Position numbers and translations under genes: made by a program
Shown: piece after piece, positions 1,268 to 17,020 of the stretch
Layout: each line of letters opens with the position of its first letter
How positions within the stretch are numbered: the stretch's first letter is position 1
The notes under the pieces: model-generated
Seen by the model: the letters and a program-made list of their open reading frames with translations, nothing else
Databases searched by the model: none
Told to the model about the DNA's origin: nothing
Origin: a virus
Lineage: Duplodnaviria > Heunggongvirae > Uroviricota > Caudoviricetes
Reading direction: 5' to 3' (one strand)
Virus record (IMG/VR): IMGVR_UViG_2602041644_000008
Coordinates: 1-37,809 of that record
DNA: 37,809 nt

Positions 1268-1765
1268 TCAGTGCCACGATTTTTGCTTCTTCAGTGAATC
1301 GTATTGCTGTTCGCAGGATTCTCCTGCAATCCGATACTTTTCAGCCTCAGCTGCTGTTGCGTTGTAAACTCGGTTGCTTTCTTCAAGCATGTCGGCGAGC
1401 ACACCGATGACCTTGCTGGCTGGCGTGCCAGTGGGGAAAGATCCGGTATAGTGTTCGGCGAGTCGCTTGGTTTTGTCAAGCTCGGCGCGCAGGCTGTCAG
1501 CAGCGGCATTAGCATGCTCAGCATCAACACGCGCCACATCGATACGGGATTGTGCTTCACGTTCAATTTGTGTTTTCTCCTGATCACGTTGTGACCTGGC
1601 CTTATCATCAGCCTGTTTCTGATCTTCCTGTGCCTGCGCATACCCGGCGTCGTACTGACGACTGCCGTGTGCATTCCAGGCTACAACTCCTGATATGACC
1701 AGAACAGCAAGCATCGCCATGATAACCAACTGTTTCCAGTATGCTTTTGCGAATGCCCAGATCAT
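1268..1765 (-). CDS. Rz-like i-spanin
   Basis: Immediately downstream of the endolysin, overlapping its stop; N-terminal TM helix then charged coiled-coil periplasmic domain; typical size. Confidence 0.6.
1291..1539 (-). CDS. Rz1-like o-spanin embedded in the Rz +1 frame
   Basis: Alternative frame inside Rz encodes [17 protein letters not shown] (lipobox LLTAC) followed by a Pro-rich peptide; exact start codon uncertain (candidates 1539, 1524, 1509). Confidence 0.35.
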   Translation of the reverse strand: MWRVLMLSMLMPLLTACAPSLTKPSDSPNTIPDLSPLARQPARSSVCSPTCLKKATEFTTQQQLRLKSIGLQENPANSNTIH

Positions 1766-2391
1766 ACCGCCAGCACCTTACTGGCAGTGATGTATCGCGC
1801 GCGCCGGTCATCAATGCCGTTCCGGCCACCATTGATAAGCAGAGTTACACGTGCAATATCTCCGGTATACTTCATGCAGCCTTTGCTGGAGAAGAACCAG
1901 GCCGCGCTACGAGCCGCGTATTCGTCCTGTGCCAGCAGTTCAGGATTCTCCAGCAGGTCAACTTTCAGACCGTTTCCGCAGTCACGATAGTTATTCAAAC
2001 CGGTAATCTGGATAAGCCCGCGCCCACGGTAATTCCAGCCATCGCCGGGAGCATTGTTACCCATGCGTTTGCTGTATACCAGATTTGCGATCGCGCGCTG
2101 GCGCTCAAGTGGCAATGGTGGTTCACCAGCGCGGCGCCCCAGTGCATTAGCCTGTCCCTGGGTGAGGCGTCCAGTCCGGACAAAGCTTGCCAGTCCGGTA
2201 ACGCTGTAGTTGAAATTCTCCTGCAACCTAGTGAACCCCCCAGACTCATGCCCAACTTGAGCAATAAACATTGCCTGATCTTCTGCTTTGCTGATACCAA
2301 ACTCTTTCATCGCAGAAGTTATATGCGAGAACCAGCGAGCGGCCAGCGCCTCGCTAATACCAGCAGCTCGCTGGAATTGTTTAATCTCCAT
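1762..2391 (-). CDS. Endolysin, glycoside hydrolase family 19 (chitinase-like)
   Basis: Motifs [12 protein letters not shown] and [12 protein letters not shown] characteristic of GH19 phage endolysins; 209 aa; between holin-like genes and Rz. Confidence 0.8.
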
Positions 2392-2689
2392 GTTTAGACC
2401 TCGTTATTTTGAAAATCTGAACGACGTTACCGCGCGTTTTAATAACCGCAGCAAGCATGACAGCGTTGATAATGACCTCAGATAAATCCACAGCCATTGG
2501 CGTGCGTAACCAGATTGCATAGACGACACGAACTGGAATACTGGCTGCAGCAACAATCAGGAAATAAGCAAGCCATCCCCCCCATCTTCGGTGTTGTGAA
2601 CCGTTACGCCGGAAAGTGACAACGCGAATTGCTATGCCAGTACAAATAACTGCATTGGTGATAAGCAAAAAAAACTCATGCGTTACCAT
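2381..2689 (-). CDS. Putative holin/antiholin-like membrane protein
   Basis: 102 aa, two to three hydrophobic helices; directly upstream of and overlapping the endolysin start. Confidence 0.4.
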
Positions 2690-3080
2690 CGTCTTTTCTC
2701 CCCGGAATTAACTCGCGTGGATTATCGGAACGGTGATAGAGCCAGATGCCAATTCGTACTGCGACGATTGCTGACACAAATGCGCCAGCAGAGAAAACAA
2801 TCCCTTTCTCGAAAGAGTCCTGCGTGATGGTAGGTATCAGGCTGGCTATGCCGATAAGAATTGATGCTGCTGGTTTGTAGAAAAGAAGTCCGCAGAGAAA
2901 ACTAAGCATCGACAAGAGTACGCGACGACGAATTGGGTACTCTACCGCAGAGGTAACAAAAATTACCGCGCCAGCCAAAGCTCCCAAAGCAACCTCAGGA
3001 GGCACTCCTGCTATCACCGCCGCCAGAGAACTCATGCTAAGCCACTGATTTAATGTTTCACTGGTTAGTTGAGCTGACAT
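2676..3080 (-). CDS. Putative holin-like membrane protein
   Basis: About 134 aa from the ATG at 3080 (SD GGTGG upstream); three hydrophobic segments; first gene of the lysis cassette. Confidence 0.4.
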   Translation of the reverse strand: MSAQLTSETLNQWLSMSSLAAVIAGVPPEVALGALAGAVIFVTSAVEYPIRRRVLLSMLSFLCGLLFYKPAASILIGIASLIPTITQDSFEKGIVFSAGAFVSAIVAVRIGIWLYHRSDNPRELIPGRKDDGNA

Positions 3081-3301
3081 ATTTTCCACCATTTATATGC
3101 ATAACGACCCCCTAAATAGTAAAACATCATGCATGATAAACCATTTGTGGTTTTTTGTTACCCTGACATCGTCAATCCCCTGCCTTTGATGTCGATAATA
3201 AGGCTCGCCTTTTACATAACTCTGAACAGATTGCAGTACAGAAATGATTTAAAATATAGAGGCTTAGTTGAATTCCGCGCCATCAAATGGCGCGGTAGCA
3301 G

Positions 3302-3620: not shown

Positions 3621-5936
3621 TCATAAAATAGATTTCGTCTTTGTAACAATAATATCTACAAAATCACCTGCAGATATAGCTGATGGTACTGTATCTGCAA
3701 GAGTAATCTTTTCTGAAGAGATGTTTTGCACATCTAATAATTTATTTTCAACCCCATCCGTATATACCAATTTGACATCACTGAATGGAGGGTAATAAGT
3801 GACTGTTCCTTGGTATACATATATTTCAATGCCTGAAATTGATTTCACTACATACCTGCCCCTTACAAGATTAATTTTGAGTTCAGATAAATCGGTTTTA
3901 TAACAGGTAATTCCTGAACCAATGTTAGCCATACTAATATCAGTATCACTATAATAAGTAATTGCTTTTCCTTGTTTTAAGGTGAAGTTATCTTTGCTTT
4001 TCCTTGGCAAGGATGTGCTATTTTTGTAATATCTACCAGTTAAGCATAGCCATGAAAATGCAGTATTCGCTACATTACCACCAGAATACACAGCTAAACG
4101 AATTGCACTAACTGGAACCCCTTCATTATTAATCCTGATCTTAATGGAAGAAATGTTAGCAACAGTAGCATATCTATGGTTAGATGAATCCCATTGCATA
4201 GAAGAAGTTATTGCTTCTGTTTGTGAAGTTATGACATTCCCATCTCCATCTAATGCATACAGGTAAATGCGAAACGATGCCGTATCTGCTGAGAATGTAA
4301 ACATATCACCATTTCTTACTGGTACATCTCCAGATTCCCATAACAACCCAAAATTCCGCATAAAAGCAAACTTAGAAGAAACTAGGTGACGGATATTATA
4401 TAAACCATCTACATCTGTTTGATATGCTAATACACCAACTTCTCCATTGTTGGCACTGGATATAAATGGGGTGTTAGCATTTAAAGAAAACAATGTTACT
4501 TCATCGGATATATTTTCCTGAACATGAAATACTGCATTCCCCTTGCCATTATCAGTTACCTCTACATAAGTGTAAGGTGATGGATTGTATGGTTCATTTG
4601 TATAGTAAGGAGAACTTAACCATGAAGCCTCAATTGAGTTATTCCACGTATATTCACCAAAGTTAATTATCAACTGTTGGTTAGTTGGGGATGATGGATA
4701 TCGTTCAAAACGAAACCCGTAGAAGTAATTGTTATCACCTCTTTGAATATCAATTTTACCTGCCCCCTCCATAGTTCCACCATAAAACTTATTGTGGTTA
4801 TGATGATATGGATTATCAGCGAAAATTATATTATTCGTACGATTCAGATAAAAATAGTTTTCATTTATCCATCCGTTCTCAACTCCAAGAAAATGAATTG
4901 TATCGACCTTTTTCAGGTTAAAGGTTGAGTATGCTATTGAATAATCCGTCGATGCCACCGAAGCATTATAATTTGCATATAACTGTAAGTAGTCGCAACG
5001 CTCAATGTTTATATGCTGCCCTTTTGCCCCGATAATACGAATATCCGGTGTCGTTTCAGATGAAATACCAGAATTTCTGATAATCGTTCCGAAGTTTTGT
5101 CTTGGGTTGTTAGGGTTTGATGCATTCCCGCCAAGCAATACCCCTATTCCTGAGTGGGATATGGTAAAAACAGCATTGGTCATTTCGAGGCTGACATTAC
5201 GAAGATTTAATGTCTCCGTAATAATAAAATTACCTTCCGCTCGTAATGTTCTGGATGATTCTCGTGCATATTCTGCAGCCAGGATCAATGCAGATGTATC
5301 ATCTGTTATACCATCGCCTTTTGCCCCAAAATCGCAAACACTAACGGTGTCTCTCATCTTATCCTGGAACGTTCGGTATACTGCTCCAGAACCATACTGA
5401 ATAAACCAACCAAAACCACCAACAACCCCGGCGATTGCAGCATCGACATAATTACGCATTGAGCGATTATTTACAGCGTCCTGCTCAAGTGATGGATCTG
5501 CAAGGTTAGAAATTTTGTTTTGCTTTGCATCGTAATATTTTGCAAGCAAAGATGGTTTCATCAATGCACGTCTGAACCACCCAAAACATTGCTGGATCAG
5601 CATCGTCAGGTAGTCAAAAGCATCTTCATGCACTTCGGGGAAAAATTTTCCCTGATTGCGAAGATCTGTCTCCTGCACTACATCAAGCACACGATCTATC
5701 GTAATTCGCCAGCCAGCAGCAAGCGGAGACGGCAGAACCACTGAACCGCCACTATAAGTGCCCGCCCCAGTTACCGTATAACCGGTATCCAGAACCAATT
5801 CTGTTACGTTCCCGTTCAGGTCAGACACCTGAACAACCAGGTCTGATTTTCTGAAAATTCGAAAAGTATACGGAAACGATGTCGTAACGCCGTTACCTGT
5901 GTATTCGTTGTGGTCAACTTCGGTTGAGACCGTCAT
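3621..5936 (-). CDS. Tailspike protein with beta-helix (pectate-lyase-like) depolymerase domain
   Basis: N-terminus (YTGNGVTTSFPYTFRIF) resembles podovirus tail-fiber/tailspike particle-attachment domains; central motif CDFGAKGDGITDDTSAL is the hallmark of pectate_lyase_3 tailspikes; markedly AT-rich. Confidence 0.8.
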   Translation of the reverse strand: MTVSTEVDHNEYTGNGVTTSFPYTFRIFRKSDLVVQVSDLNGNVTELVLDTGYTVTGAGTYSGGSVVLPSPLAAGWRITIDRVLDVVQETDLRNQGKFFPEVHEDAFDYLTMLIQQCFGWFRRALMKPSLLAKYYDAKQNKISNLADPSLEQDAVNNRSMRNYVDAAIAGVVGGFGWFIQYGSGAVYRTFQDKMRDTVSVCDFGAKGDGITDDTSALILAAEYARESSRTLRAEGNFIITETLNLRNVSLEMTNAVFTISHSGIGVLLGGNASNPNNPRQNFGTIIRNSGISSETTPDIRIIGAKGQHINIERCDYLQLYANYNASVASTDYSIAYSTFNLKKVDTIHFLGVENGWINENYFYLNRTNNIIFADNPYHHNHNKFYGGTMEGAGKIDIQRGDNNYFYGFRFERYPSSPTNQQLIINFGEYTWNNSIEASWLSSPYYTNEPYNPSPYTYVEVTDNGKGNAVFHVQENISDEVTLFSLNANTPFISSANNGEVGVLAYQTDVDGLYNIRHLVSSKFAFMRNFGLLWESGDVPVRNGDMFTFSADTASFRIYLYALDGDGNVITSQTEAITSSMQWDSSNHRYATVANISSIKIRINNEGVPVSAIRLAVYSGGNVANTAFSWLCLTGRYYKNSTSLPRKSKDNFTLKQGKAITYYSDTDISMANIGSGITCYKTDLSELKINLVRGRYVVKSISGIEIYVYQGTVTYYPPFSDVKLVYTDGVENKLLDVQNISSEKITLADTVPSAISAGDFVDIIVTKTKSIL

Positions 5937-6112: not shown

Positions 6113-6132
6113 ATTGCATGGAGAAGATTAAG

Positions 6133-6390
6133 ATGCAGCAGTATCACTATCCACTGGAAGACGGATTTACCGAAAGGATTCACACGCCGGGAGGCGTCAG
6201 GTCACTGGTGGAGGGATCGCACTTGATGAAATTACTCCGGGATCTCGATAAGGATGGATTTAATGTCGATGGCCCACTTGCCGAACTGACTGCACTGATT
6301 AACTACGTCACCAGCTCACAGATGTCTATGCAGGATCTGCAAACACATCTCGACTATTGTGCCGAACAATTACGAAAACAAACCACATAA
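6133..6390 (+). CDS. Stand-alone antirepressor C-terminal domain protein (candidate SOS-induced antirepressor)
   Basis: SD GGAG upstream of the ATG at 6133; 85 aa; clearly alignable with the C-terminal ~80 aa of the BRO-N antirepressor at 7536-8228 (IHTPGGV..LMKLL..DG..V.GPLAELT...Y......L.DLQTH). Confidence 0.55.
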   Translation: MQQYHYPLEDGFTERIHTPGGVRSLVEGSHLMKLLRDLDKDGFNVDGPLAELTALINYVTSSQMSMQDLQTHLDYCAEQLRKQTT

Positions 6391-6396
6391 AGAAAA

Positions 6397-6412
6397 GGCC
6401 GCTAGAGCGGCC
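6397..6412. terminator. Bidirectional terminator between convergent genes
   Basis: GGCCGC-TAGA-GCGGCC hairpin with T-rich flanks on both strands; overlaps the stop of the minus-strand gene. Confidence 0.5.
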
Positions 6413-7140
6413 TATCGTTTCGCTTTGTGCTCGTCCCAGCACGTTTTGCACCATGCCATTAAGCCATCCGCATTTTGATTATTAGGGTAAAAGCTGGTTC
6501 GTTTTCTGCGGACATTACAAATTGGGCACCACTTCATATGGCGTGTATTCTTTGGACCATCGAGACACCTTGCACACCACTTAGTCAATCCATCTGGATT
6601 TTTTGACGATTTCCTGAATTTTTCATATGGAAGGTTTATTCTGCATCGCAAGCACTGCTTGCTACCACTTGAAACTCTGTTAGCTGATTCTTCTTTTGGC
6701 GGCGATACAGAAGGTATTCTTGCTGGCTCTGATACTGCCTGAGGTGCTTTTTTAGATGACTGAGACGATATGTCATCACCAGGGAATCGTCCATGATATG
6801 CCGGACGCGTTGACACTCCAGGTGGAAGCTCTGCTGTAAATGGCTTTGGCTGAATCAGTTGCCTCTCTTTTGCTAACTCCTGCTGTTTATAATATGTCTG
6901 GATTACCGCACTATCATAAGCAGGAGGTGCGGAAATATTAGGCGCATTACCTCCAGTTTTTTGAAACTGAGTAGAGGTGTGTTCTATCACCTGTGTACGA
7001 TTAATCGTTATCTCCCCATCTTCGGTCTTTATCGTTTTGTTATGATTAACGACCGTACGATCAGAGATCTTAGTCTTGTTCTGGTTGATAACATAAATAA
7101 TCACCGCAACCACACCAACAACTATCCAGAAAACTTCCAT
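6412..7140 (-). CDS. Membrane-anchored protein with two C-terminal zinc-ribbon-like repeats
   Basis: N-terminal TM helix, Pro/Ser-rich linker, then two repeats of C-x2-C ... DGL-x3-WC-x2-C; AT-rich gene; no family recognised. Confidence 0.5.
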   Translation of the reverse strand: MEVFWIVVGVVAVIIYVINQNKTKISDRTVVNHNKTIKTEDGEITINRTQVIEHTSTQFQKTGGNAPNISAPPAYDSAVIQTYYKQQELAKERQLIQPKPFTAELPPGVSTRPAYHGRFPGDDISSQSSKKAPQAVSEPARIPSVSPPKEESANRVSSGSKQCLRCRINLPYEKFRKSSKNPDGLTKWCARCLDGPKNTRHMKWCPICNVRRKRTSFYPNNQNADGLMAWCKTCWDEHKAKR

Positions 7141-8357: not shown

Positions 8358-8684
8358 ATGACAAAACTTGGATTCGTGATGAGAGGTCCGGTAAGAAGCG
8401 GAACTCATGCAAAGCGTAGCAAGAGTCGTATTTTTACTGGTAAGGTTGTAGCACGTAAATCAGCTATTGGCTCGTTCAATAGTGAAAATGCGGCATTGCG
8501 CCATATTTTTATCAGCACAAAGCCAAGAGCATCCGCTGATGTGCATACAATGTCTATTCCTATCACAAAGAATATCAAGCGGATAAAAAAGCTCTCATCT
8601 GCAGAATCAAAAGAGATATCTTTCCGCCAGCTTAACTCATTAGAAACGCATATGAAGGAAGAGGAATTCGATGTTTTTGAGTGA
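8358..8684 (+). CDS. Small basic protein, putative antitoxin/partner of the YafO-like gene
   Basis: SD GGAG 8 nt upstream; 108 aa, Lys/Arg-rich N-terminus, acidic C-terminus; 14-nt overlap with the downstream gene (translational coupling). No homolog recognised. Confidence 0.4.
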   Translation: MTKLGFVMRGPVRSGTHAKRSKSRIFTGKVVARKSAIGSFNSENAALRHIFISTKPRASADVHTMSIPITKNIKRIKKLSSAESKEISFRQLNSLETHMKEEEFDVFE

Positions 8685-9183
8685 GTATAGCGGGAAGGTT
8701 ATACCTACTGGTGAGTTTAAAACTGATGACTTTCTGATTTCGCTAAAAGATGCTTTTAAACAACACTGGCGTCATGGTCATCATCCTGATCTGGGAAAAG
8801 ATACTCTTTTTGAAAGACCAGACGAAGTATTAGGCTTCCATCTCAGAAAGGTTCATGTCAATATTGGTGAATATGCATCATATTCATACTCATGTACTGA
8901 ACAGTGTTGGGATGAGTGGTCATATGGATTGATTGATGAACAAGGAAATTACAGGCCAAAACCAACCAGTAACGCATATCTCATATATGCAGTCAATGAA
9001 ATAAGAGATGCAGCCTTACTAGCTTATTGGGACCCGCCCGCACACACCAAAGCTAACGCAAAAGTTTGGATGGATTCCGTATTGAATTTCACAAAATTAT
9101 TTCATGAACGAACTAATACAGCTCCACTTAGTAGAAATGTTTATCCGTGGGATTATTCGTACAAATCCAAAAAGCCTGCATAG
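8671..9183 (+). CDS. YafO-family toxin-like protein (putative ribosome-dependent mRNA interferase)
   Basis: Strong SD (GGAAGAGGAA); segments LGKDTLFE, LRKVHVNI and YLIYAVNE...ALLAYWDPPAHTKA resemble recalled YafO motifs (GRDALYD, ERVAHIHL, HLVYCQG...WLLIAILKPEPHKLA). Recall-based; needs HMM confirmation. Confidence 0.45.
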   Translation: MFLSEYSGKVIPTGEFKTDDFLISLKDAFKQHWRHGHHPDLGKDTLFERPDEVLGFHLRKVHVNIGEYASYSYSCTEQCWDEWSYGLIDEQGNYRPKPTSNAYLIYAVNEIRDAALLAYWDPPAHTKANAKVWMDSVLNFTKLFHERTNTAPLSRNVYPWDYSYKSKKPA

Positions 9184-9264
9184 TAGTTTTTTATGGACGA
9201 AACAAAAGTCAGTGCTACACTCATTGACGCCACATTGAGGTGGCTTATAGATGGAAATTTCACA

Positions 9265-9426
9265 ATGAAAAAAGCATTTGCTGCACTGTTCGTTTTGTTG
9301 TCTCTGGTAGCTTCAACTCAGGCCTTTGCCGGTCGTTGTCAGCACGACAGCGATACTGCCGCTGACGGCTCCCGCTGCGGTGGGCGTTCTGCGGATTCCC
9401 GCCCGGGCGGCGGTGGCATTCGTTAA
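9265..9426 (+). CDS. Small secreted Cys-containing peptide
   Basis: MKKAFAALFVLLSLVASTQAFA signal peptide, then ~31-aa Gly/Arg/Asp-rich mature peptide with two Cys; weak RBS. Confidence 0.3.
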   Translation: MKKAFAALFVLLSLVASTQAFAGRCQHDSDTAADGSRCGGRSADSRPGGGGIR

Positions 9427-9432
9427 AAACAA

Positions 9433-9448
9433 GGCCGCGAAAGCGGCC
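9433..9448. terminator. Bidirectional terminator
   Basis: GGCCGC-GAAA-GCGGCC hairpin with T-rich tracts on both strands; between convergent genes. Confidence 0.55.
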
Positions 9449-9455
9449 TGTTTGA

Positions 9456-10307
9456 TCACTGTGCAGTTTTCGCTGATCGATTTTCAGCTCTAAATTCAAG
9501 AACCGTTTCAATATTTCTTTCCTTCAGCATATCAATAACATTTTTATTCACTTGACTATCACTGGTTAATAACTGGTAAACGTTGCTTCTCTCTTTATCA
9601 GAGTTTTCTTTAACAGCTGCTTTGCATGCCAAATGCTTATTGAAATTTTCTACATCGCTAGTACAGGAATTTACGGCTGCTGATGAAATATCAGACGCTG
9701 AAGAAACACCATCATCCAAACGTTTTATAGCATTTTCTATACATGAGTTAAGGGAATAAACGACAACTGAGCGATACCCTTCAGACGCACACCATTCTAA
9801 ATTTCTTGAAGGATCGAGTGGTTTTACTTCGCTGGATTGAATTAACTTGTCAAAAACTGACTTATATTCAATCTGTTTTTTATCTATAGCCCATACTTCA
9901 GTAGCTGATTTATAATTCCCCGTATGCCTATTAACATCAAATCCATGTTTTATAAGCAAATCTGCCCATGAAAGATTTATTGATTCATTGTTATGAGGCC
10001 ATTTTCCTGTCAGAACCGCCCCCATAGACCCCATATATCCGCCATATGATGGTATAGCACCATGGCTCAGTAACTTCTCAGCAACCACAGGGCAATTAAT
10101 TACATAAGAGGCGTAAAGCCCATTCCATAAAGCCCCTCTATAGTAATCGCCACGATTAGGTTCTTTTAAGTCGATAGCCTTTGATAATTGTTCACACGTT
10201 TTGCATGCATCAAAGTTATCCTTATTGCATTGCAATGAACTGGCAGCTGTAGGATTTACAGAGACTATTGAAAGCACTATGCCAAAAAACAAATTTATTT
10301 TTTTCAT
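9456..10307 (-). CDS. Secreted Cys-rich protein of unknown function
   Basis: Sec-type signal peptide; about ten Cys; AT-rich; start overlaps the stop of the upstream internal virion gene, so it is in the late operon. Confidence 0.5.
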   Translation of the reverse strand: MKKINLFFGIVLSIVSVNPTAASSLQCNKDNFDACKTCEQLSKAIDLKEPNRGDYYRGALWNGLYASYVINCPVVAEKLLSHGAIPSYGGYMGSMGAVLTGKWPHNNESINLSWADLLIKHGFDVNRHTGNYKSATEVWAIDKKQIEYKSVFDKLIQSSEVKPLDPSRNLEWCASEGYRSVVVYSLNSCIENAIKRLDDGVSSASDISSAAVNSCTSDVENFNKHLACKAAVKENSDKERSNVYQLLTSDSQVNKNVIDMLKERNIETVLEFRAENRSAKTAQ

Positions 10308-10308
10308 C

Positions 10309-13300
10309 CTATTTCATCTGCTCTTCAACTTTATTTAGTAATGGTGATATCGCCCACAGATTCTGAAAAGGTAGCATTTTACGGACAGCGTGGGTTTGCT
10401 GGCTGTCAAATTCTCCGTTAAGTACACCATTCGCAACCGTCGCGGCATCACCGCCAAGATCAAAGGTAGGACCAAGTAAAGCACCAATAGTATTACGACT
10501 CTGAAACCTTGATACCGGAGGCGCACCAAACATCGCGCCAAGACCAAACCTACCGCCGCTTATGTTCTCAACGGTATTCAGCGGCTCAGAGAGCCAGCCA
10601 AGCATTCCGCCCCGGTCGATCCCCTCTTTCACAAGGTTATTCCAGCTGTAGTCGATATCGCGACCGCTTAACTTCTGTTTCATCATATAGACCATTGAGC
10701 CAAGCGCAATCGTGCCAAGCGCACCAAGATAGAATGCAGCATCGCCCTGCTGGATACCAGATACTAGCACCCTGTTATGCTGTGCGAAGATAAACGTTTT
10801 GAACTGCGTGATCATCTTCCAGCCTTCTTTACTAAAAAACAGCGGTGTATCACCTACGCCAGGCGTTACAATCACTGAGTCTACATCTTTCAGCACTGCA
10901 GACTGGAAAATCTCTCTAGCGAAACGGTCATCCCACAGATGACTATGCCCGGTTAACAGCCCGTCCATATCCTCTCCGTGCTTCCCGAATTGCTCCCCGA
11001 TTCGGCGCAGAACATCTTCATTGATGCCGACCTGTGCCATCTTCCGCATTTCACTTTTGGAGAGCGTGCCACCAGCAGAAACTTGGCGAGCCGCGTCAAG
11101 TATCCTCGACTGCACTATCATCCCGGACCATGATTTAAGTGCGCTGTTCCACTGATTCATCAGCGTCCAGTTACCGAATTTCTGCGTCATCCAGTTCAGG
11201 CCTCGCTCAGCGGCGCTTCTCCGGCTATAGGGGTCAGTAAGATCCGCTATAGCCTTTGTACGCGTAGACAGGACATAATCAAGCCCAACGGCCATTTCTC
11301 GCAAATCCCTGGTTGCAATCTTCACTGAGTCCATATTTTTAAGCATGCTTACCATTGGTCCGAGAGATTTTCTCAGGCCATGCTGCATCATCGGTCGCAT
11401 CAGATCAGTTGCAGCGGAGACGGTCATTCCACCAAGCAAACGGAGGAAGTTAATATTCCTAGCAACTCGCCCGGCACGAACAAAGAAACTGCGTGGATCT
11501 TGAGGTGCGCCGTAAGTACCAAGCAGTCGGTCACGCATAGCCGTAATATCCCTAATATCAGCCTCCCGTTGCTTCTCAAGAGCTGCACGTCGTTTAGGTG
11601 TTTTAGCCTCTTTTATTAGCCGGGTATATTCCTCACTAACCTGACGGATTTGCTCCCCCATATCTTTACGGCCAAACTGCGCAGTCAGCTCAATTTCTGG
11701 CGCCACCTGCCGGAGATAACTTTCCATGATGTAGTTAACATCTGATTCAAGAAAATCTTCTATACGCTCATCAGGAATAAGCAGCGTTCGGCTTTTAGTG
11801 AAACCAGCCCGACCAACGAGTCTCTCTGGGATAATATCGGCTGGTACAAGCCCGGAAGGTGCGCCTATTATTTTATTCACGATCTCGTCAGCAGCGTCCT
11901 CTGCTTCCTCTCGGGATAGAGGCTCCATCTGCTTCAGTGCTCGCTCGCGGCTTGCATTCAGCCTTGTGGTTGAATTTGCCCGTTTTTGCAGTCGGCGAAG
12001 CTCAGAACGATATTTCCGTGGATTATCCAGCAACTCCATATGGCGCTGATAGACAGGAAGCTCACTCTTTGCCTGCGCTATATCATCAAGGCGAGTTTTA
12101 AGGTCAGAGCTTTCTTTCATCATTCTTGCCTGAAGTTTTTCTGATGAAGTCTCGGCCAACTCTTTTTCTATTCTTGTAAGACGCGCCTGTGTGTCAGTCT
12201 CCTGAGATATAAGCCTATTTCGTTTATCCAGTTCTTCCATGAGTAGAATTTTTTTACCAGACCATTTCTCCGCTTCAGCGATTTCACTAGCGAGAGCATC
12301 AGCGCGCAGTGCTGATTCCTCTGCAGTTTTTAGCAATGAATTTATCTTTTCAATTCGCTGACCTGCTTTGTCAGCACCTTTGGCACTAATCCCTTGTATC
12401 CAGTTGGCAATTCGCCCTCTGAATTCCGTGCGGTCGGAAAGTATCTTATCGAACTTATAAATGCGGGGAAGATAACTTTTCGCCGTCACGACATCGATAT
12501 CCTCAGGAAGGATCCCCAATTCCTGCATACGGGCTTTTGTGGTCTCAAAAATGGGGCGGATTCTGGCGGCTGCTTGTGAAACCTCAGGAATATCACTCTG
12601 ATCACCACGGCGCATAGCCATGCCAACAGCTTCATTGAAATCAATAAAGTTCATCCTCTTCACGCCGCGGGCGCTGACAGATTTGCTGTACTGCTGGTAA
12701 GCATCACGAGTAGCTTCCATCTGCTTATAAAGCATGGCGTCGTATTGCTTAATCTTAGTCTCGACTGCCGTAAACGTAGCCAACCCCTCATCATTTTTGG
12801 CGAAGAAATAGTTATTTTCGGCAAGCTGCTGGTTAATCTGACGGGAAACAAGAGATGGTGATTGCGCCAAGCGGCCAGCAGGAGTGACACTCAACGTTTT
12901 GTTAGCAAGTCCAAGTCCAGCGAGCTGTTCCTGATCGAGTGTGGTATTGAAAACCTGAGCTGCACCAATGCTTTGAGGAGAATCCATACCTCGCAAATGA
13001 TTACCTACTGAGTTAACCACTGCCTCGCGCGCGCTAGGTCCAGCAAGTAGCTGTGCACCAGCACCAAGGATCCCACCAACGAGAGCATCAACAACAACGT
13101 TCGATACGCTCTCCATCGGTGAGCGAGCTTCCTGAGTGGCCTGCAATGCGGCCTCTGAAGCAACACTGCCAGCAGCATTGGCTAAAGCAAAACGTCCGGC
13201 TGTTTCTGCAATACGACCGCCACGAACGACAGCGCCGAACGGAATAAACATAGAAATCGCATTGAATGGATCTGCTAATCTCATTGCTACAGAAGAGACT

Positions 13301-13698
13301 GTACCAGCAAATCCCAAGCCTGAATTGTATTCCATGTCAGCTCTCTGCTGATCGATTCGATGTTTAATTGCCATTGTTTCTTCAGGCGAACCGGAGTTGA
13401 TAAACGAATCTGCAAAATCTTCATAGCCTTTAATATCTGCTGCATCGTTATCAAATGGGTTATATCCTTCAACCCTGTCAAACTGACTGAAAGGAGCACT
13501 GGCAATAAAGCTACCCAGCGTGTTATCTATACGAAATGCTGCTTGTCTAGACCTTTGAACGCGTTGATCACTGGTAAATGGGTTCACAGCAGAAAGCAAA
13601 GAAGGTGTTTCCATATAGAAATTACTGTCATCAGGTGCTGCTATTTGCTGAATATCCTCGCCAAGCAACTCTTTAGGATCCTGTTCATATATCGGCAT
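10309..13698 (-). CDS. Internal virion/DNA-ejection protein (T7 gp16-like by position)
   Basis: 1129 aa, last and largest of the internal-protein series after the tail tubular genes; start overlaps the upstream stop. Confidence 0.55.
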   Translation of the reverse strand: MPIYEQDPKELLGEDIQQIAAPDDSNFYMETPSLLSAVNPFTSDQRVQRSRQAAFRIDNTLGSFIASAPFSQFDRVEGYNPFDNDAADIKGYEDFADSFINSGSPEETMAIKHRIDQQRADMEYNSGLGFAGTVSSVAMRLADPFNAISMFIPFGAVVRGGRIAETAGRFALANAAGSVASEAALQATQEARSPMESVSNVVVDALVGGILGAGAQLLAGPSAREAVVNSVGNHLRGMDSPQSIGAAQVFNTTLDQEQLAGLGLANKTLSVTPAGRLAQSPSLVSRQINQQLAENNYFFAKNDEGLATFTAVETKIKQYDAMLYKQMEATRDAYQQYSKSVSARGVKRMNFIDFNEAVGMAMRRGDQSDIPEVSQAAARIRPIFETTKARMQELGILPEDIDVVTAKSYLPRIYKFDKILSDRTEFRGRIANWIQGISAKGADKAGQRIEKINSLLKTAEESALRADALASEIAEAEKWSGKKILLMEELDKRNRLISQETDTQARLTRIEKELAETSSEKLQARMMKESSDLKTRLDDIAQAKSELPVYQRHMELLDNPRKYRSELRRLQKRANSTTRLNASRERALKQMEPLSREEAEDAADEIVNKIIGAPSGLVPADIIPERLVGRAGFTKSRTLLIPDERIEDFLESDVNYIMESYLRQVAPEIELTAQFGRKDMGEQIRQVSEEYTRLIKEAKTPKRRAALEKQREADIRDITAMRDRLLGTYGAPQDPRSFFVRAGRVARNINFLRLLGGMTVSAATDLMRPMMQHGLRKSLGPMVSMLKNMDSVKIATRDLREMAVGLDYVLSTRTKAIADLTDPYSRRSAAERGLNWMTQKFGNWTLMNQWNSALKSWSGMIVQSRILDAARQVSAGGTLSKSEMRKMAQVGINEDVLRRIGEQFGKHGEDMDGLLTGHSHLWDDRFAREIFQSAVLKDVDSVIVTPGVGDTPLFFSKEGWKMITQFKTFIFAQHNRVLVSGIQQGDAAFYLGALGTIALGSMVYMMKQKLSGRDIDYSWNNLVKEGIDRGGMLGWLSEPLNTVENISGGRFGLGAMFGAPPVSRFQSRNTIGALLGPTFDLGGDAATVANGVLNGEFDSQQTHAVRKMLPFQNLWAISPLLNKVEEQMK

Positions 13699-16445
13699 TA
13701 TTTGCCCCCTGCGTATATATTGCTCGGAAGGTAATTGGCTGAACCATAACCGAATGGTTTGGTCAGATCTGGAGGAGTATATCCATCTTTATTGCTGAAC
13801 TGCGGCAGCGGATTGCCTTCTCTCCGCACTCTAGCCTCATCAACACGCTGTTGCTGGAACTGAATGGTTTGCCTGTACATTGGAGATGTCAGCTGATCCG
13901 GCTTGAAACGAACAGGGAGACCATTTTCTCCAATATAATTTCTCGGTTCTATCGCTCCGTTTGCGTCAGGCTGTAAAACCATAACAGCATAACTCCTATC
14001 CCTTGCCGTAAGGCCATCAGAAACAAGTATTAAGTCCGTATCACTGCGAGGACCGCCAAAGGATTTTGATTTAAGCTCGCGTTTTTCCTGCTCCCACTGC
14101 CCCTGTATCCAGTTACCAGCACCATTATTTACTCCGTACAATGCCTCAGGTGCATACTTCATAACCTCTGCTTTGCCATTAACCGTAGAAACTCCCCAGG
14201 TGGTTCTGATCATGGCATTGGTCATTTTCTCAGCCTGTTCTGCATCGCCACCTGTCTGTACAAAGTTAGCATCGTAAATTGTCTGGTAATCTCGCTGATA
14301 GGCCGCATTTGATTTTCCTGGATCGGTAATATCCGGAGACCACGAACCAAAGGAAGTCAGACTGCTGGCGTTATTTTGTGCAGCAGTTGCCCTCGCCGCG
14401 ACATATTTTTTGTCTCGCATGGCAGTGGAAAGCATCTGTTTCATTCGGTCATCCTGTTGGAACACCTGGCTGTAAGCCATATCAACAGCCTTATCCTCCG
14501 GCACTCCAGCGCGGGAATAATCGTAAACCTTGCCGTAAAATGCCATCGTACTTTTATCAAGTGTTGCCGCTGCCGCCGGATTATTATCGAATAACTGACC
14601 GTAGAATTTTGCCATCGGGACAACCAGCGCAGGATCTCTTGATGTTGCTCCACTGTTAAGCATTGTTTTAACCTGAGTTGGTATCATGCCGCTTTTAGTT
14701 GTGACGGTGACCAGTGTATTGATGCTCTGCGGATCAGATATGGAAAACGAAGGCGCGATATCCTGCGCGAAATAACGGTCTACCGCTGCCTGATTGTTTT
14801 TGTCGTTCGGGTCCAGCGGGAAGTTATTTTGCATTGAAGACACGAACCTGTTTCTTCCCTGCTGAATCTCCCACTCCCTATCCATCTCTTTAAATTTGGC
14901 CTGCATTTTCTCCCAGCGTTGCTGGTTAGCTGCAAATCCAGGAGCGTTTGGATCCTGTGGACGTAAACGTTCAAGAATGTCTTGTCGTCCTTCTGGAGTG
15001 AGGTCTTTAGCGGCACCAATGACACCTCCATATTGTATCTGCGCCTGCATATCCTTCCACTTCATAGCGCCAATGCGCGGACCATTGGCCCGGATAAAAT
15101 CGTCCTCAGAAGGTAACTTCTCAGGTTTCAATCCTTCATCAAGGGCTGAATATGCATCTTTAACTACGGTGCTAAGCTGGTCCGCATACTGCTGGCGGTA
15201 CTGATTTCTCAGCTCATTAGCCTGCCTCAATGCCTGTATTTGCATTTGAGGGCTCATAGCATCAAATGCCGCATTGCCCGTATAACGCTTAGGTGAATCA
15301 AGGTTAGTTAGACCAAGGGCTGCCGAGATACCAGTTTCAAGCTGTTCGGTGCTATAAGGCATACTGCCATTTTCGTGTTTAATAATCCCAGCACATAAAG
15401 CAGCTAGTGTCTTTGGGTTAGAGATATCAAGCTGATCATTCTCCCCAACACCAAGCTCACCACACAATGCCCTAATATAAGCATCAGTATTATTACCATC
15501 ACTAGCCGGAGCATAGCGATTAACAATCTCGCTAACGGTGTCATAGCCTTGACGCTGGTAAGACAACATATTTTTACCCAACGCGCGGATTCCATGCTCA
15601 GGGGTAGCAAACGTTGCAAAACGTCCATCGCTACCGATCTGACCTTCCCACGGGTTAGATTTGCTCGCTTCAATATTACCAGGGTTATTATTACGTAAAC
15701 CACGAGCATCCAATGAATTACCATGTGATATTGCACGACTCACACCATCAAGATCCCCTGGCTCTCCATTAACCTGAAGAAACTCGTTGTATTTTTGAGC
15801 GATATTTCCTATCCATGCTTGCTGCCCCATTTGTTCCTTGAGCTGAGTTTTCTGCTGAACACGCCACTCATCAGGAAGCCCATGCGCATCAGCGTATTGA
15901 TCAATAGATTCAAATCGCTGCTTGGCTAAATCGACAAATGCTTGGTTATCGCTATATAGCCCCGCAGACTGAGTGACAGCCAATGCATTTCCTGACAAAT
16001 ACGTTTGATCTTGGAATTGCTGAAACTGCCCAACTTCATATCGACGTGCCTGATTGTAATAAGACTGCATAGACTGCTGGAGTTGAAAGGATAATTTATT
16101 CCTTTCCTCACTTTCAGGAATTGAGCCTAATAATGCCTGAGCCCTTTCCTGCATATTTTTCATAACAGCGTCACTCTGACCAAGAGCGTTTTTACCCTGT
16201 TTAGAAATCAGCCCACTTTCAGGGTTGTTAATCTGGTCATCTGCAAATTGGTTAAATTGCAGTAACGCCTCCTGGGCCATAGCAACATTCGCTTTCTGCC
16301 TGGCTTCACCATATGCCACCGCATACTGATCTGCGACATTCGCCAGCACCTGACCTGCTTGAGGAACATCGAAGATCTGAAAACCACCGGTTTGCACACC
16401 ACGACTTTGCACCTGGCGTCCGGATGTAGTAGGAACAACAGGCAT
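13698..16445 (-). CDS. Internal virion/DNA-ejection protein (T7 gp15-like by position)
   Basis: 915 aa, T7-like position; contains a conserved-looking globular segment (RGLRNNNPGNI...GRFATFATPEHGIRA) that may be cell-wall-active. Confidence 0.55.
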   Translation of the reverse strand: MPVVPTTSGRQVQSRGVQTGGFQIFDVPQAGQVLANVADQYAVAYGEARQKANVAMAQEALLQFNQFADDQINNPESGLISKQGKNALGQSDAVMKNMQERAQALLGSIPESEERNKLSFQLQQSMQSYYNQARRYEVGQFQQFQDQTYLSGNALAVTQSAGLYSDNQAFVDLAKQRFESIDQYADAHGLPDEWRVQQKTQLKEQMGQQAWIGNIAQKYNEFLQVNGEPGDLDGVSRAISHGNSLDARGLRNNNPGNIEASKSNPWEGQIGSDGRFATFATPEHGIRALGKNMLSYQRQGYDTVSEIVNRYAPASDGNNTDAYIRALCGELGVGENDQLDISNPKTLAALCAGIIKHENGSMPYSTEQLETGISAALGLTNLDSPKRYTGNAAFDAMSPQMQIQALRQANELRNQYRQQYADQLSTVVKDAYSALDEGLKPEKLPSEDDFIRANGPRIGAMKWKDMQAQIQYGGVIGAAKDLTPEGRQDILERLRPQDPNAPGFAANQQRWEKMQAKFKEMDREWEIQQGRNRFVSSMQNNFPLDPNDKNNQAAVDRYFAQDIAPSFSISDPQSINTLVTVTTKSGMIPTQVKTMLNSGATSRDPALVVPMAKFYGQLFDNNPAAAATLDKSTMAFYGKVYDYSRAGVPEDKAVDMAYSQVFQQDDRMKQMLSTAMRDKKYVAARATAAQNNASSLTSFGSWSPDITDPGKSNAAYQRDYQTIYDANFVQTGGDAEQAEKMTNAMIRTTWGVSTVNGKAEVMKYAPEALYGVNNGAGNWIQGQWEQEKRELKSKSFGGPRSDTDLILVSDGLTARDRSYAVMVLQPDANGAIEPRNYIGENGLPVRFKPDQLTSPMYRQTIQFQQQRVDEARVRREGNPLPQFSNKDGYTPPDLTKPFGYGSANYLPSNIYAGGK

Positions 16446-17020
16446 CAGTAACCTCCTATTTTGAATCGGGAGTCAGAATTCATAAAACCTGAGTTAGATA
16501 ACATTGGCGTCCCACCACTAGATGTACTTCCTTTAGAGAACGGACTCCACGTCCCACCAAACATCTGGTACGCACCGTATGCCTTCAGAGGCGCAGTGAG
16601 TAAAGTTGTTGCTGCTCCCACATTCCCCTGTTTACGGGCTGAACTGGCTTCTGCTTTATAGTTGGCAGCCTGAACCTGATAACCGTAAGCCTCGCGTTGC
16701 GCGTTATTCACCGTCGTCAGAGAATCAAGAGCGCCAAACTGGGCAGTGTCGCCAAATATATCCAGCGCGTTACCTGTAGATAAATCAGCGCCGGTAGCCC
16801 CCATTGTCGCCGCCTGTGTACCAAGCCGCTGTCGGGTCTCTCTGCGCCGTTGCTCAGCTTCAGCGTTACCTCTGTTTATTGCATCATTTGCCTGAGCTGT
16901 GGCTATATCTGCGTTCGCTTCTGCAACCTTCGAGGCATACTTTCCCTGTTGGTACTGGGTGTATGCCTGAATGCCACTCATGGCGAGCATTGCGCCACCA
17001 GCAATAACCGGATCGCACAT
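16445..17020 (-). CDS. Internal virion protein (T7 gp14-like by position)
   Basis: 191 aa, Ala/Gln-rich; translationally coupled to neighbours. Confidence 0.45.
   Translation of the reverse strand: MCDPVIAGGAMLAMSGIQAYTQYQQGKYASKVAEANADIATAQANDAINRGNAEAEQRRRETRQRLGTQAATMGATGADLSTGNALDIFGDTAQFGALDSLTTVNNAQREAYGYQVQAANYKAEASSARKQGNVGAATTLLTAPLKAYGAYQMFGGTWSPFSKGSTSSGGTPMLSNSGFMNSDSRFKIGGY

Follow-up and report, generated by a model that had tools for sequence, protein, structure and literature searches.

A secreted two-domain protein encoded behind the ejection genes of an epsilon15/phiV10-like prophage as a candidate periplasmic superinfection-exclusion protein

What might a protein with a cleavable export signal be doing at the end of an operon that encodes the internal virion proteins of a podovirus? 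The question is raised by a 37,809-nucleotide (nt) stretch of viral DNA (IMG/VR record IMGVR_UViG_2602041644_000008; the window), which begins in the Escherichia coli genes yfgH and yfgI and then enters a prophage whose structural module is epsilon15/phiV10-like and includes a T7-type internal-virion series. The last gene of this series encodes an ejection protein of 1129 amino acids (aa), and directly 3' of it, on the same strand, lies an open reading frame (ORF) for a 283-aa protein. An earlier note on this DNA had correctly placed the ORF at the end of the ejection-gene operon, and had proposed that its product is either a periplasmic exclusion factor that masks a receptor or a periplasm-acting accessory of lysis or ejection. 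Our analysis indicates that the gene is accessory (moron-type) cargo of an epsilon15/phiV10-like temperate podovirus, and that its product is probably disulfide-stabilised. The function that we favour, with a probability of about 0.45, is that of a soluble periplasmic superinfection-exclusion protein, which would bind the gp14/gp15/gp16-type conduit of incoming phages, or a partner needed by it, and so block DNA entry. The evidence for this reading includes linkage of the gene to ejection genes, its dispensability for the virion, the presence of one of its domains in repressor operons of other phages, and its position in a slot like that of P22 sieA.

Three findings set the ORF apart from a chance reading frame: it matches phrog_6118, a family without functional annotation, over its full length (E 5.5e-200, positions 1-283 of 283), it has homologs in five genera (Escherichia, Klebsiella, Serratia, Morganella and Providencia), and its ratio of non-synonymous to synonymous substitution (dN/dS) is 0.185 for a pair of E. 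coli alleles and 0.095 for E. coli against Klebsiella. Among 5.8 billion proteins searched there were 22 relatives, with overall identities of 39-99% (84-89% in Klebsiella, about 60% in Serratia, and 39-41% in Morganella and Providencia). No sign of diversifying selection was seen, with omega at 0.09-0.28 in every segment and nowhere near 1. Of 5426 complete E. coli genomes, 106 carry the ORF, in each case on the chromosome. It also occurs in one deposited phage genome, that of EC.W1-9, which gave the only full-length match when 50,697 deposited phage records were searched with tblastn; at the DNA level the window copy is 99.5-100% identical to those of EC.W1-9 and of prophages in strains such as SBF22, IHE3034 and APEC O18. 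At 36.9%, the G+C content (GC) of the gene is below that of the window (47.8%) and of the upstream 1129-aa gene (48.2%), and its GC at third codon positions is 28% versus 44% in that neighbour. The earlier note, which left the strand unstated, was therefore right to treat the ORF as a real, AT-rich gene, and two smaller points of its description, the number of Cys residues and the overlap with the upstream gene, need correction as given below.

The N-terminus of the 283-aa protein (MKKINLFFGIVLSIVSVNPTAA followed by SS) has the basic n-region, the hydrophobic core (12 residues) and the A-x-A-like cleavage site of the classical signal peptide that the note described, and signal peptidase I probably cuts after TAA or AAS, at A22 or S23. 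This is the sole hydrophobic segment of the protein (the maximum in a 15-residue Kyte-Doolittle window is 2.0, at residues 3-20, and values elsewhere are at or below 1.08), and every homolog has an equivalent signal-type N-terminus. The protein is Cys-rich, with eight Cys residues instead of the ten or so that had been counted; all of them belong to the mature protein, and none varies within the family, down to the 39% identity that separates E. coli from Providencia. Other motifs conserved throughout the family are GDYYRGALWNGLY, WPH and LDDG.S.ASD. A lipobox of the form [LVI][ASTVI][GAS]C is absent from the cleavage site of the protein and its homologs: directly ahead of the first Cys stands Q in the E. 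coli, Klebsiella and Serratia proteins, K in those of Morganella and Providencia, and E in two homologs from metagenomes. The protein is therefore not a lipoprotein, and a lipoprotein reading, of the type of the receptor-blockers T5 Llp, Cor or Ltp, was rejected. These features are those of a soluble protein without outer-membrane features, which we infer to be periplasmic and disulfide-bonded.

The position of the gene at the end of the internal-virion series is the only observation that would favour a component packaged with the internal proteins, and such a role is extremely unlikely. The capsid assembles in the cytoplasm, so packaging is hard to reconcile with a cleavable export signal and eight conserved Cys residues, whose invariance implies folding in an oxidising compartment, and profiles of the T7-type gp14, gp15 and gp16 proteins gave no match to the 283-aa protein. 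In addition, the gene is missing from two Klebsiella phages, Kp4865-1 and ST512-KPC3phi13.3, with an ejection protein that matches that of the window at about 93% identity across the C-terminal 499 residues compared; their slot is filled by an unrelated 204-aa cytoplasmic protein without a signal peptide, encoded 9 nt past the ejection-gene stop and before the same convergent gene. Among E. coli genomes the ejection gene occurs in 120 and the 283-aa ORF in 106; the two exceptions examined, SJ2D and CS5L, have other cargo between that gene and the gene for the same small peptide, namely a secreted four-Cys protein of 146 aa, encoded on the other strand, and a cytoplasmic protein of 149 aa. The 283-aa protein is dispensable for the virion and accessory, which agrees with the earlier remark that its properties would be unusual in a virion component. 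Three of the four hallmarks of a moron were found (presence/absence polymorphism, deviant composition and a terminator); the fourth, a promoter of its own, was not.

When 1.84 billion representative proteins were searched exhaustively by profile, the 283-aa protein proved to be a fusion of two modules, each of which also exists as a stand-alone small secreted protein. The N-terminal module, which on its own makes up proteins of about 160 aa that come mostly from environmental metagenomes, is probably a divergent ankyrin-like domain. With ankyrins defined by tandem repeats of about 33 residues that carry a ...LLxxGAxxN... signature, recognisable by profile or by fold, the profile of this module matched ankyrins in the PDB at E 7e-5, and nearly all of its other matches were ankyrin proteins; an hhalign comparison with the consensus of designed ankyrin repeat proteins (DARPins) gave 70% probability over two repeats, and the Pfam Ank models gave no match. 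A homolog of the C-terminal module stands alone in secreted proteins of 110-165 aa (hhalign 98.8%), and the predicted structure of the module is all-helical at a predicted local distance difference test score (pLDDT) above 90. It is characterised by the motif LDDG(V/I)S(P/S)ASDI(A/S), flanked by the conserved pair C189 and C215, and by a family-specific extra Cys pair. No relatives of this domain were found in Pfam, NCBIfam or the PDB, and tblastn with three C-domain-only proteins gave no match among deposited phages. Searches of Pfam, NCBIfam and PADLOC also found nothing for the full-length protein or for the stand-alone homologs of either domain, with no PADLOC-DB anti-phage defence family at E<=0.1, and both domains thus represent families that are as yet unannotated. 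Fold searches with the whole protein gave no significant match, and nothing enzymatic was seen among the structural and profile matches. Both modules therefore appear non-catalytic, the best structural and profile matches being ankyrin repeat binders.

The genomic contexts of the stand-alone modules are the most informative evidence. Two loci, a Morganella prophage and a prophage contig from a metagenome, have a gene for the C-terminal module alone in the same slot behind the ejection genes. In a BPP-1-like phage that carries Mtd, bAvd and reverse transcriptase genes, such a gene adjoins the gene for a 1879-aa internal protein in the opposite orientation and must be transcribed independently. 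Three unrelated temperate phages (loci L022, L023 and L041) have the C-module gene as the distal member of a repressor operon. The start codon of the L022 copy overlaps, in the sequence ATGA, with the stop of the gene for an S24-peptidase cI-like repressor, which is divergent from a YdaS/Cro-like gene, and a strong terminator comes next. The L023 copy overlaps a gene that matches Pfam HTH_3 weakly, below the cut-off, and that is divergent from a small cro-like gene, itself an HTH_3 match below the Pfam cut-off; an exact-pattern scan of the metagenome collection gave no extension of this locus. In L041 (JAEHJW020001822.1, 9200..10240), the C-module gene starts 4 nt past an Arc/Mnt-type ribbon-helix-helix gene, which is divergent from an arc-like gene and a Rha antirepressor gene, and the inverted repeats between them may be operators in a layout resembling P22 immI; this phage also encodes a T7_gp14-type ejection module and a nozzle protein. 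Genes that are co-transcribed with cI or mnt, as in the lambda cI-rexAB operon or at P22 mnt, are made in lysogens, so the C-module genes in repressor operons are presumably made in lysogens as well. Contexts of the N-terminal module are more varied: one gene for this module only lies directly after the tail genes of another phage-like element, and the others have mobile or uninformative surroundings, some of them chromosomal and not phage-looking.

Full-length homologs, by comparison, were found in a single context. Each one whose surroundings could be read (at four places in Klebsiella, two in Serratia, three in Morganella and one in Providencia, and on four IMG/VR contigs) lies directly downstream of an ejection gene of about 1130 codons, on the same strand and at a gap of 1-31 nt, and the order of the gp14- and gp15-like ejection genes is kept in all related loci. 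Relative to the window, identities of the 283-aa protein and the 1129-aa protein, respectively, are 85% and 90% in Klebsiella, 61% and 79% in Serratia, 41% and 55% in Morganella, and 39% and 51% in Providencia, and the GC of the homologs is 35-40% in all lineages, whether the phage locus has a GC of 39% or 53%. Because the divergence of the two proteins runs in parallel and the GC stays at 35-40%, this sequence pattern indicates long vertical co-inheritance with a lastingly deviant composition, as opposed to a recent insertion. On one viral contig (IMGVR_UViG_2645728082_000015, 4350..4517) the ejection gene and the homolog are separated by a hairpin that resembles a terminator and by about 100 nt of non-coding sequence, a diverged duplicate of an ejection-gene 3' end; this recombination scar suggests that the cargo gene can move together with that upstream stretch.

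The receptor-masking part of the earlier proposal is disfavoured by comparison of the near-identical E. coli copies. These accompany three tailspikes with unrelated receptor-binding parts, namely the 771-aa spike of the window, an endosialidase in IHE3034 and an 'eliminase' in EC.W1-9, so a function tied to a particular surface receptor is unlikely. With the gene independent of tailspike type, and the product devoid of a lipobox or outer-membrane features, receptor masking was rejected as a leading idea; the exclusion part of that proposal is the one best supported by context, through the C-domain genes in repressor operons and the sieA-like slot.

Several of the same observations would also be expected of a lysogenic-conversion or fitness factor that is unrelated to phage exclusion, in which a periplasmic binder protects or modifies the envelope of the lysogen, for example as an inhibitor of an incoming peptidoglycan hydrolase, of a type VI secretion system (T6SS) or bacteriocin toxin, or of host lysozyme, or acts on a eukaryotic host after release. 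The secreted, disulfide-rich and non-enzymatic binder architecture would suit this role, as would the moron hallmarks (low GC whatever that of the phage, terminator, presence/absence polymorphism), the presumed production of C-domain homologs in lysogens, the non-phage-looking chromosomal contexts of some N-domain homologs, and the many human or poultry isolates among the carriers in the complete genomes listed. A fitness factor is a serious rival but the less likely reading, since it does not predict the strict association with ejection genes that the full-length gene and the C-domain-only genes show in one podovirus type across five genera and again in the BPP-1-like phage. Searches of the PDB, Pfam, NCBIfam and PADLOC found no similarity to lysozyme inhibitors or T6SS immunity proteins, and a Sec signal by itself would leave the protein inside the cell.

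The slot behind the ejection genes holds other envelope-targeted proteins in most of the relatives examined: a 187-aa N-terminally anchored protein in TL-2011b, a 227-aa secreted protein in Morganella, and small polytopic membrane proteins in Serratia and Providencia. In phiV10, the type Uetakevirus, the slot contains p21, which likewise starts shortly after the last structural gene (9 nt) and has on its 3' side a terminator and, beyond that, a Bro-N antirepressor region, but which is an unrelated 46-aa integral membrane protein with two transmembrane helices. To a specialist, a secreted cargo gene in this slot is in itself unsurprising.

Known systems offer partial precedents for the proposed action. 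T4 Spackle (Sp) and P1 Sim are small soluble or periplasm-facing exclusion proteins with a signal peptide, which act after adsorption on penetration or DNA entry; Spackle binds the virion-borne gp5 lysozyme of the incoming phage, and is made by a virulent phage during lytic growth. The 283-aa protein shares with them the signal peptide and the presumed periplasmic location, but no similarity in sequence or fold to either was detected. The lambda genes lom and bor are late-operon morons with deviant GC, a terminator, envelope-targeted products, variable presence and a promoter of their own. Our gene is like them in its GC, its terminator, its variable presence and its place at the end of the structural operon, and differs in that no promoter of its own was found and in that it has been co-inherited down to 39% identity, longer than is typical of recent cargo. 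Ltp, encoded by Streptococcus phage TP-J34, consists of two small helical repeat domains and is thus a two-module binder like the 283-aa protein. Both Ltp and HK97 gp15 are prophage-encoded proteins, extracytoplasmic or located in the membrane, that block DNA injection (PMC10883804); unlike the 283-aa protein, which lacks a lipobox and is homologous to neither, Ltp is a lipoprotein of a Gram-positive phage and gp15 is an inner-membrane protein of a siphovirus.

A parallel in gene position is offered by P22 sieA, which has the last ejection gene (16) on one side and the tailspike gene (9) on the other, encodes a protein that blocks DNA injection, and is accessory, being present in 22 of 66 P22-like phages (PMC10883804). 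The 283-aa gene likewise is accessory, sits between the last ejection gene and the tailspike gene beside an antirepressor (immI-like) region, and has a product that would act at the envelope; in the case of SieA the genetic target is the ejection proteins, as escape mutations map to gp16 and gp20 (PMC10883804). SieA differs in being a polytopic inner-membrane protein that has its own promoter and a cytoplasmic FxRYPxEAxxFNK motif, whereas the 283-aa protein would be soluble, has a single cleavable signal peptide, and belongs to a phage with T7-type instead of P22-type ejection proteins. The FxRYPxEAxxFNK motif is absent from the 283-aa protein, and the tblastn search of deposited phage records gave no P22-like match. 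By analogy, then, the 283-aa protein may resemble SieA, Spackle, Sim and Ltp in its action, while it is a member of none of these families.

In the exclusion mechanism that we propose, the precursor would be exported by Sec and cleaved by signal peptidase I, and its eight Cys residues would presumably become disulfide-bonded in the periplasm. The mature protein of about 29 kDa would consist of two non-enzymatic binding modules, the ankyrin-like N-domain and the helical 'LDDGxSxASDIA' C-domain, which would bind a periplasm-exposed part of the gp14/gp15/gp16-type ejection conduit of an incoming related podovirus. Assembly or working of the conduit would then be stopped, so that phage DNA is kept from the cytoplasm, and exclusion would follow adsorption. 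A broader and more doubtful version of this proposal, which we hold tentatively, is that the protein represents a new class of soluble, disulfide-locked periplasmic anti-ejection proteins built from two independently mobile binder modules, each of which would trap a part of the conduit; the C-terminal module might then be a widespread exclusion domain, not recognised before, which temperate phages would put into their cI or mnt operons.

How the full-length gene is expressed bears directly on this proposal. The junction with the upstream gene reads TAGGATG (TAG at 10311..10309, a single G, and ATG at 10307..10305), so the start codon does not overlap the upstream stop as had been claimed, and no Shine-Dalgarno sequence at functional spacing was found upstream of the ORF in the junction sequence. 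For want of such a sequence, expression of the window copy by termination and reinitiation can reasonably be inferred. The translational coupling suggested in the earlier note is accordingly plausible in E. coli and Klebsiella, where the gap is 1 nt; it is not conserved in Morganella and Providencia, where the gap is 11-31 nt and a separate Shine-Dalgarno-like sequence is present. Fusion of the ORF to the 1129-aa protein by frameshift or read-through was rejected: the frame of the ORF is closed by a TGA three codons before the ATG, spacer length differs between lineages (1 to 31 nt), and a fusion would place the signal peptide internally, where it would make no sense. On the 3' side, a hairpin (GGCCGC-TTTC-GCGGCC) starts 6 nt past the stop of the gene. 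It fits the bidirectional terminator that the note had described, with T-runs on both strands, the one on the plus strand being weaker; RNA folding of the flanking 55 nt gave -18.4 kcal/mol for the minus strand and -22.8 kcal/mol for the plus strand. An equivalent hairpin is located 3' of the Klebsiella and Morganella homologs.

Several results weigh against an exclusion function. Model confidence for the N-domain is moderate (pLDDT 55-85), no similarity in sequence or structure to any characterised exclusion protein was detected by tblastn, PDB or fold searches, and a literature search turned up no experimental report on the protein family; a search on the RefSeq accession found nothing on the 283-aa protein, and the preprint that describes EC.W1-9 contains no proteomics. 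The synteny and parallel divergence with the ejection gene could reflect mere linkage. In addition, a consensus scan for sigma-70-like promoters on both strands of positions 9000-10800 returned 0 sites (3.9 were expected by chance), a relaxed scan gave only weak matches (at most 8 of 12 positions), and no promoter was found upstream of the Morganella homolog, although a non-consensus promoter would escape scans of this kind. The 1-nt gap suggests that the 283-aa gene is simply the last cistron of the late operon. With this gap and no promoter of its own found, expression of the full-length gene in lysogens is a supposition, and if the protein is made only late, exclusion would be less obviously useful and a role in a late periplasmic event of the phage's own cycle would gain weight.

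Such a role might lie in lysis timing, in sensing superinfection as T4 antiholin RI does, or in conditioning of the envelope, and the long vertical co-inheritance with the structural module, together with the operon-terminal position, speaks for it. We nonetheless regard it as decidedly unlikely: the lysis cassette (two holins, a GH19 endolysin and a spanin) is located elsewhere in the window and is present in related prophages with or without the 283-aa gene, close relatives that include deposited phages swap the gene for unrelated cargo yet remain phages, and the C-domain genes in repressor operons point to expression in lysogens. The lysis or ejection accessory of the earlier note found no positive support. 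Superinfection exclusion remains the reading that we prefer, and the features on which it is based are collected with their neighbours in Table 1.

Table 1. Coordinates of the 283-aa gene, its parts and its neighbours in the window
Feature	Coordinates	Strand	Evidence or remarks
Coding sequence, secreted two-domain protein, 283 aa	9456..10307	minus	ORF call, phrog_6118, homologs, dN/dS
Signal peptide, about residues 1-22/23	10239..10307	minus	Hydrophobicity profile, homolog alignment
N-terminal divergent ankyrin-like domain, about residues 25-165	9813..10235	minus	Four invariant Cys (27, 35, 38, 72)
C-terminal helical domain, about residues 166-283	9459..9812	minus	Four invariant Cys (173, 189, 215, 228); motif LDDGVSSASDIS
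Junction: TAG stop of the 1129-aa gene plus 1-nt spacer	10308..10311	minus	Direct sequence read
Intrinsic-terminator hairpin common to convergent genes	9432..9449	none	Terminator scan, RNA fold
1129-aa gp16-like internal virion (ejection) protein	10309..13698	minus	phrog_342 'internal virion protein', phrog_16310
915-aa gp15-like and 191-aa gp14-like ejection proteins	13698..17020	minus	Pfam T7_gp14 E 4.4e-8 for the 191-aa protein
Convergent 53-aa secreted peptide gene (context only)	9265..9426	plus	phrog_14503, phrog_3117; shares terminator with the 283-aa gene
YafO-like toxin, 170 aa	8671..9183	plus	Pfam YafO_toxin E 9.5e-4, below cut-off; RefSeq 'YafO family toxin'
108-aa ORF	8358..8684	plus	Overlaps YafO-like gene upstream
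Bro-N antirepressor, 245 aa	7491..8228	plus	
242-aa protein	6412..7140	minus	phrog_6762
90-aa protein	6118..6390	plus	phrog_450, phrog_15539
Tailspike	3621..5936	minus	
Lysis cassette	1268..3092		

The region beyond the shared terminator has features of its own. The product of the convergent 53-aa gene consists of a signal peptide followed by GRCQHDSDTAADGSRCGGRSADSRPGGGGIR and carries the annotation label 'transmembrane anchored protein'; the gene is far commoner than the 283-aa ORF, occurring in about 500 of 5426 E. coli genomes, and a Klebsiella equivalent was also found. The peptide gives a weak, sub-threshold match (E 0.02) to NCBIfam HxsA3, a His-Xaa-Ser repeat protein, and HxsA is the periplasmic effector of HXS defence, which blocks DNA entry (PMC13128918). 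Further along, the YafO-like gene and the 108-aa ORF that overlaps it could form a toxin-antitoxin pair in the accessory region.

Between the antirepressor and tailspike genes lies the gene for the 242-aa protein, which has an N-terminal membrane anchor and a Cys-rich, zinc-ribbon-like C-terminal region, and which also gives weak matches to the endonuclease VII/HNH and Lar-like families. The 90-aa gene, which runs divergently from the tailspike gene, encodes a domain that is also present at the C-terminus of the Bro-N antirepressor, and an 83-98-aa equivalent precedes the tailspike gene in most of the related prophages examined. The tailspike gene itself is a mosaic, in which the N-terminal 165 or so residues are common to many tail-spike families, and the C-terminal receptor-binding part has a GC of 33-39% and is wholly unlike the spikes of IHE3034 (an endosialidase) and EC.W1-9, prophages that are otherwise near-identical.

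EC.W1-9, which its authors assign to Uetakevirus (preprint), is near-identical to integrated E. coli prophages. The preprint presents the phage as lacking an integrase gene and as safe for therapy, and the GenBank record PP445227.1 annotates an integrase, WYA78259.1 (L001 2173..3423).

About 2% of complete E. coli genomes carry the 283-aa gene, among them extra-intestinal pathogenic (ExPEC) and avian pathogenic (APEC) lineages, and it also occurs in prophages of Klebsiella, Serratia, Morganella and Providencia, so it could affect the host range of therapeutic podoviruses. If the exclusion reading is true, a soluble anti-ejection blocker for T7-type conduits would be new, and would provide a second, mechanistically different example. 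The binder and phage mutants that escape it would map exposed surfaces of the gp14/gp15/gp16 conduit, and offer a handle on how the conduit is assembled in the periplasm.

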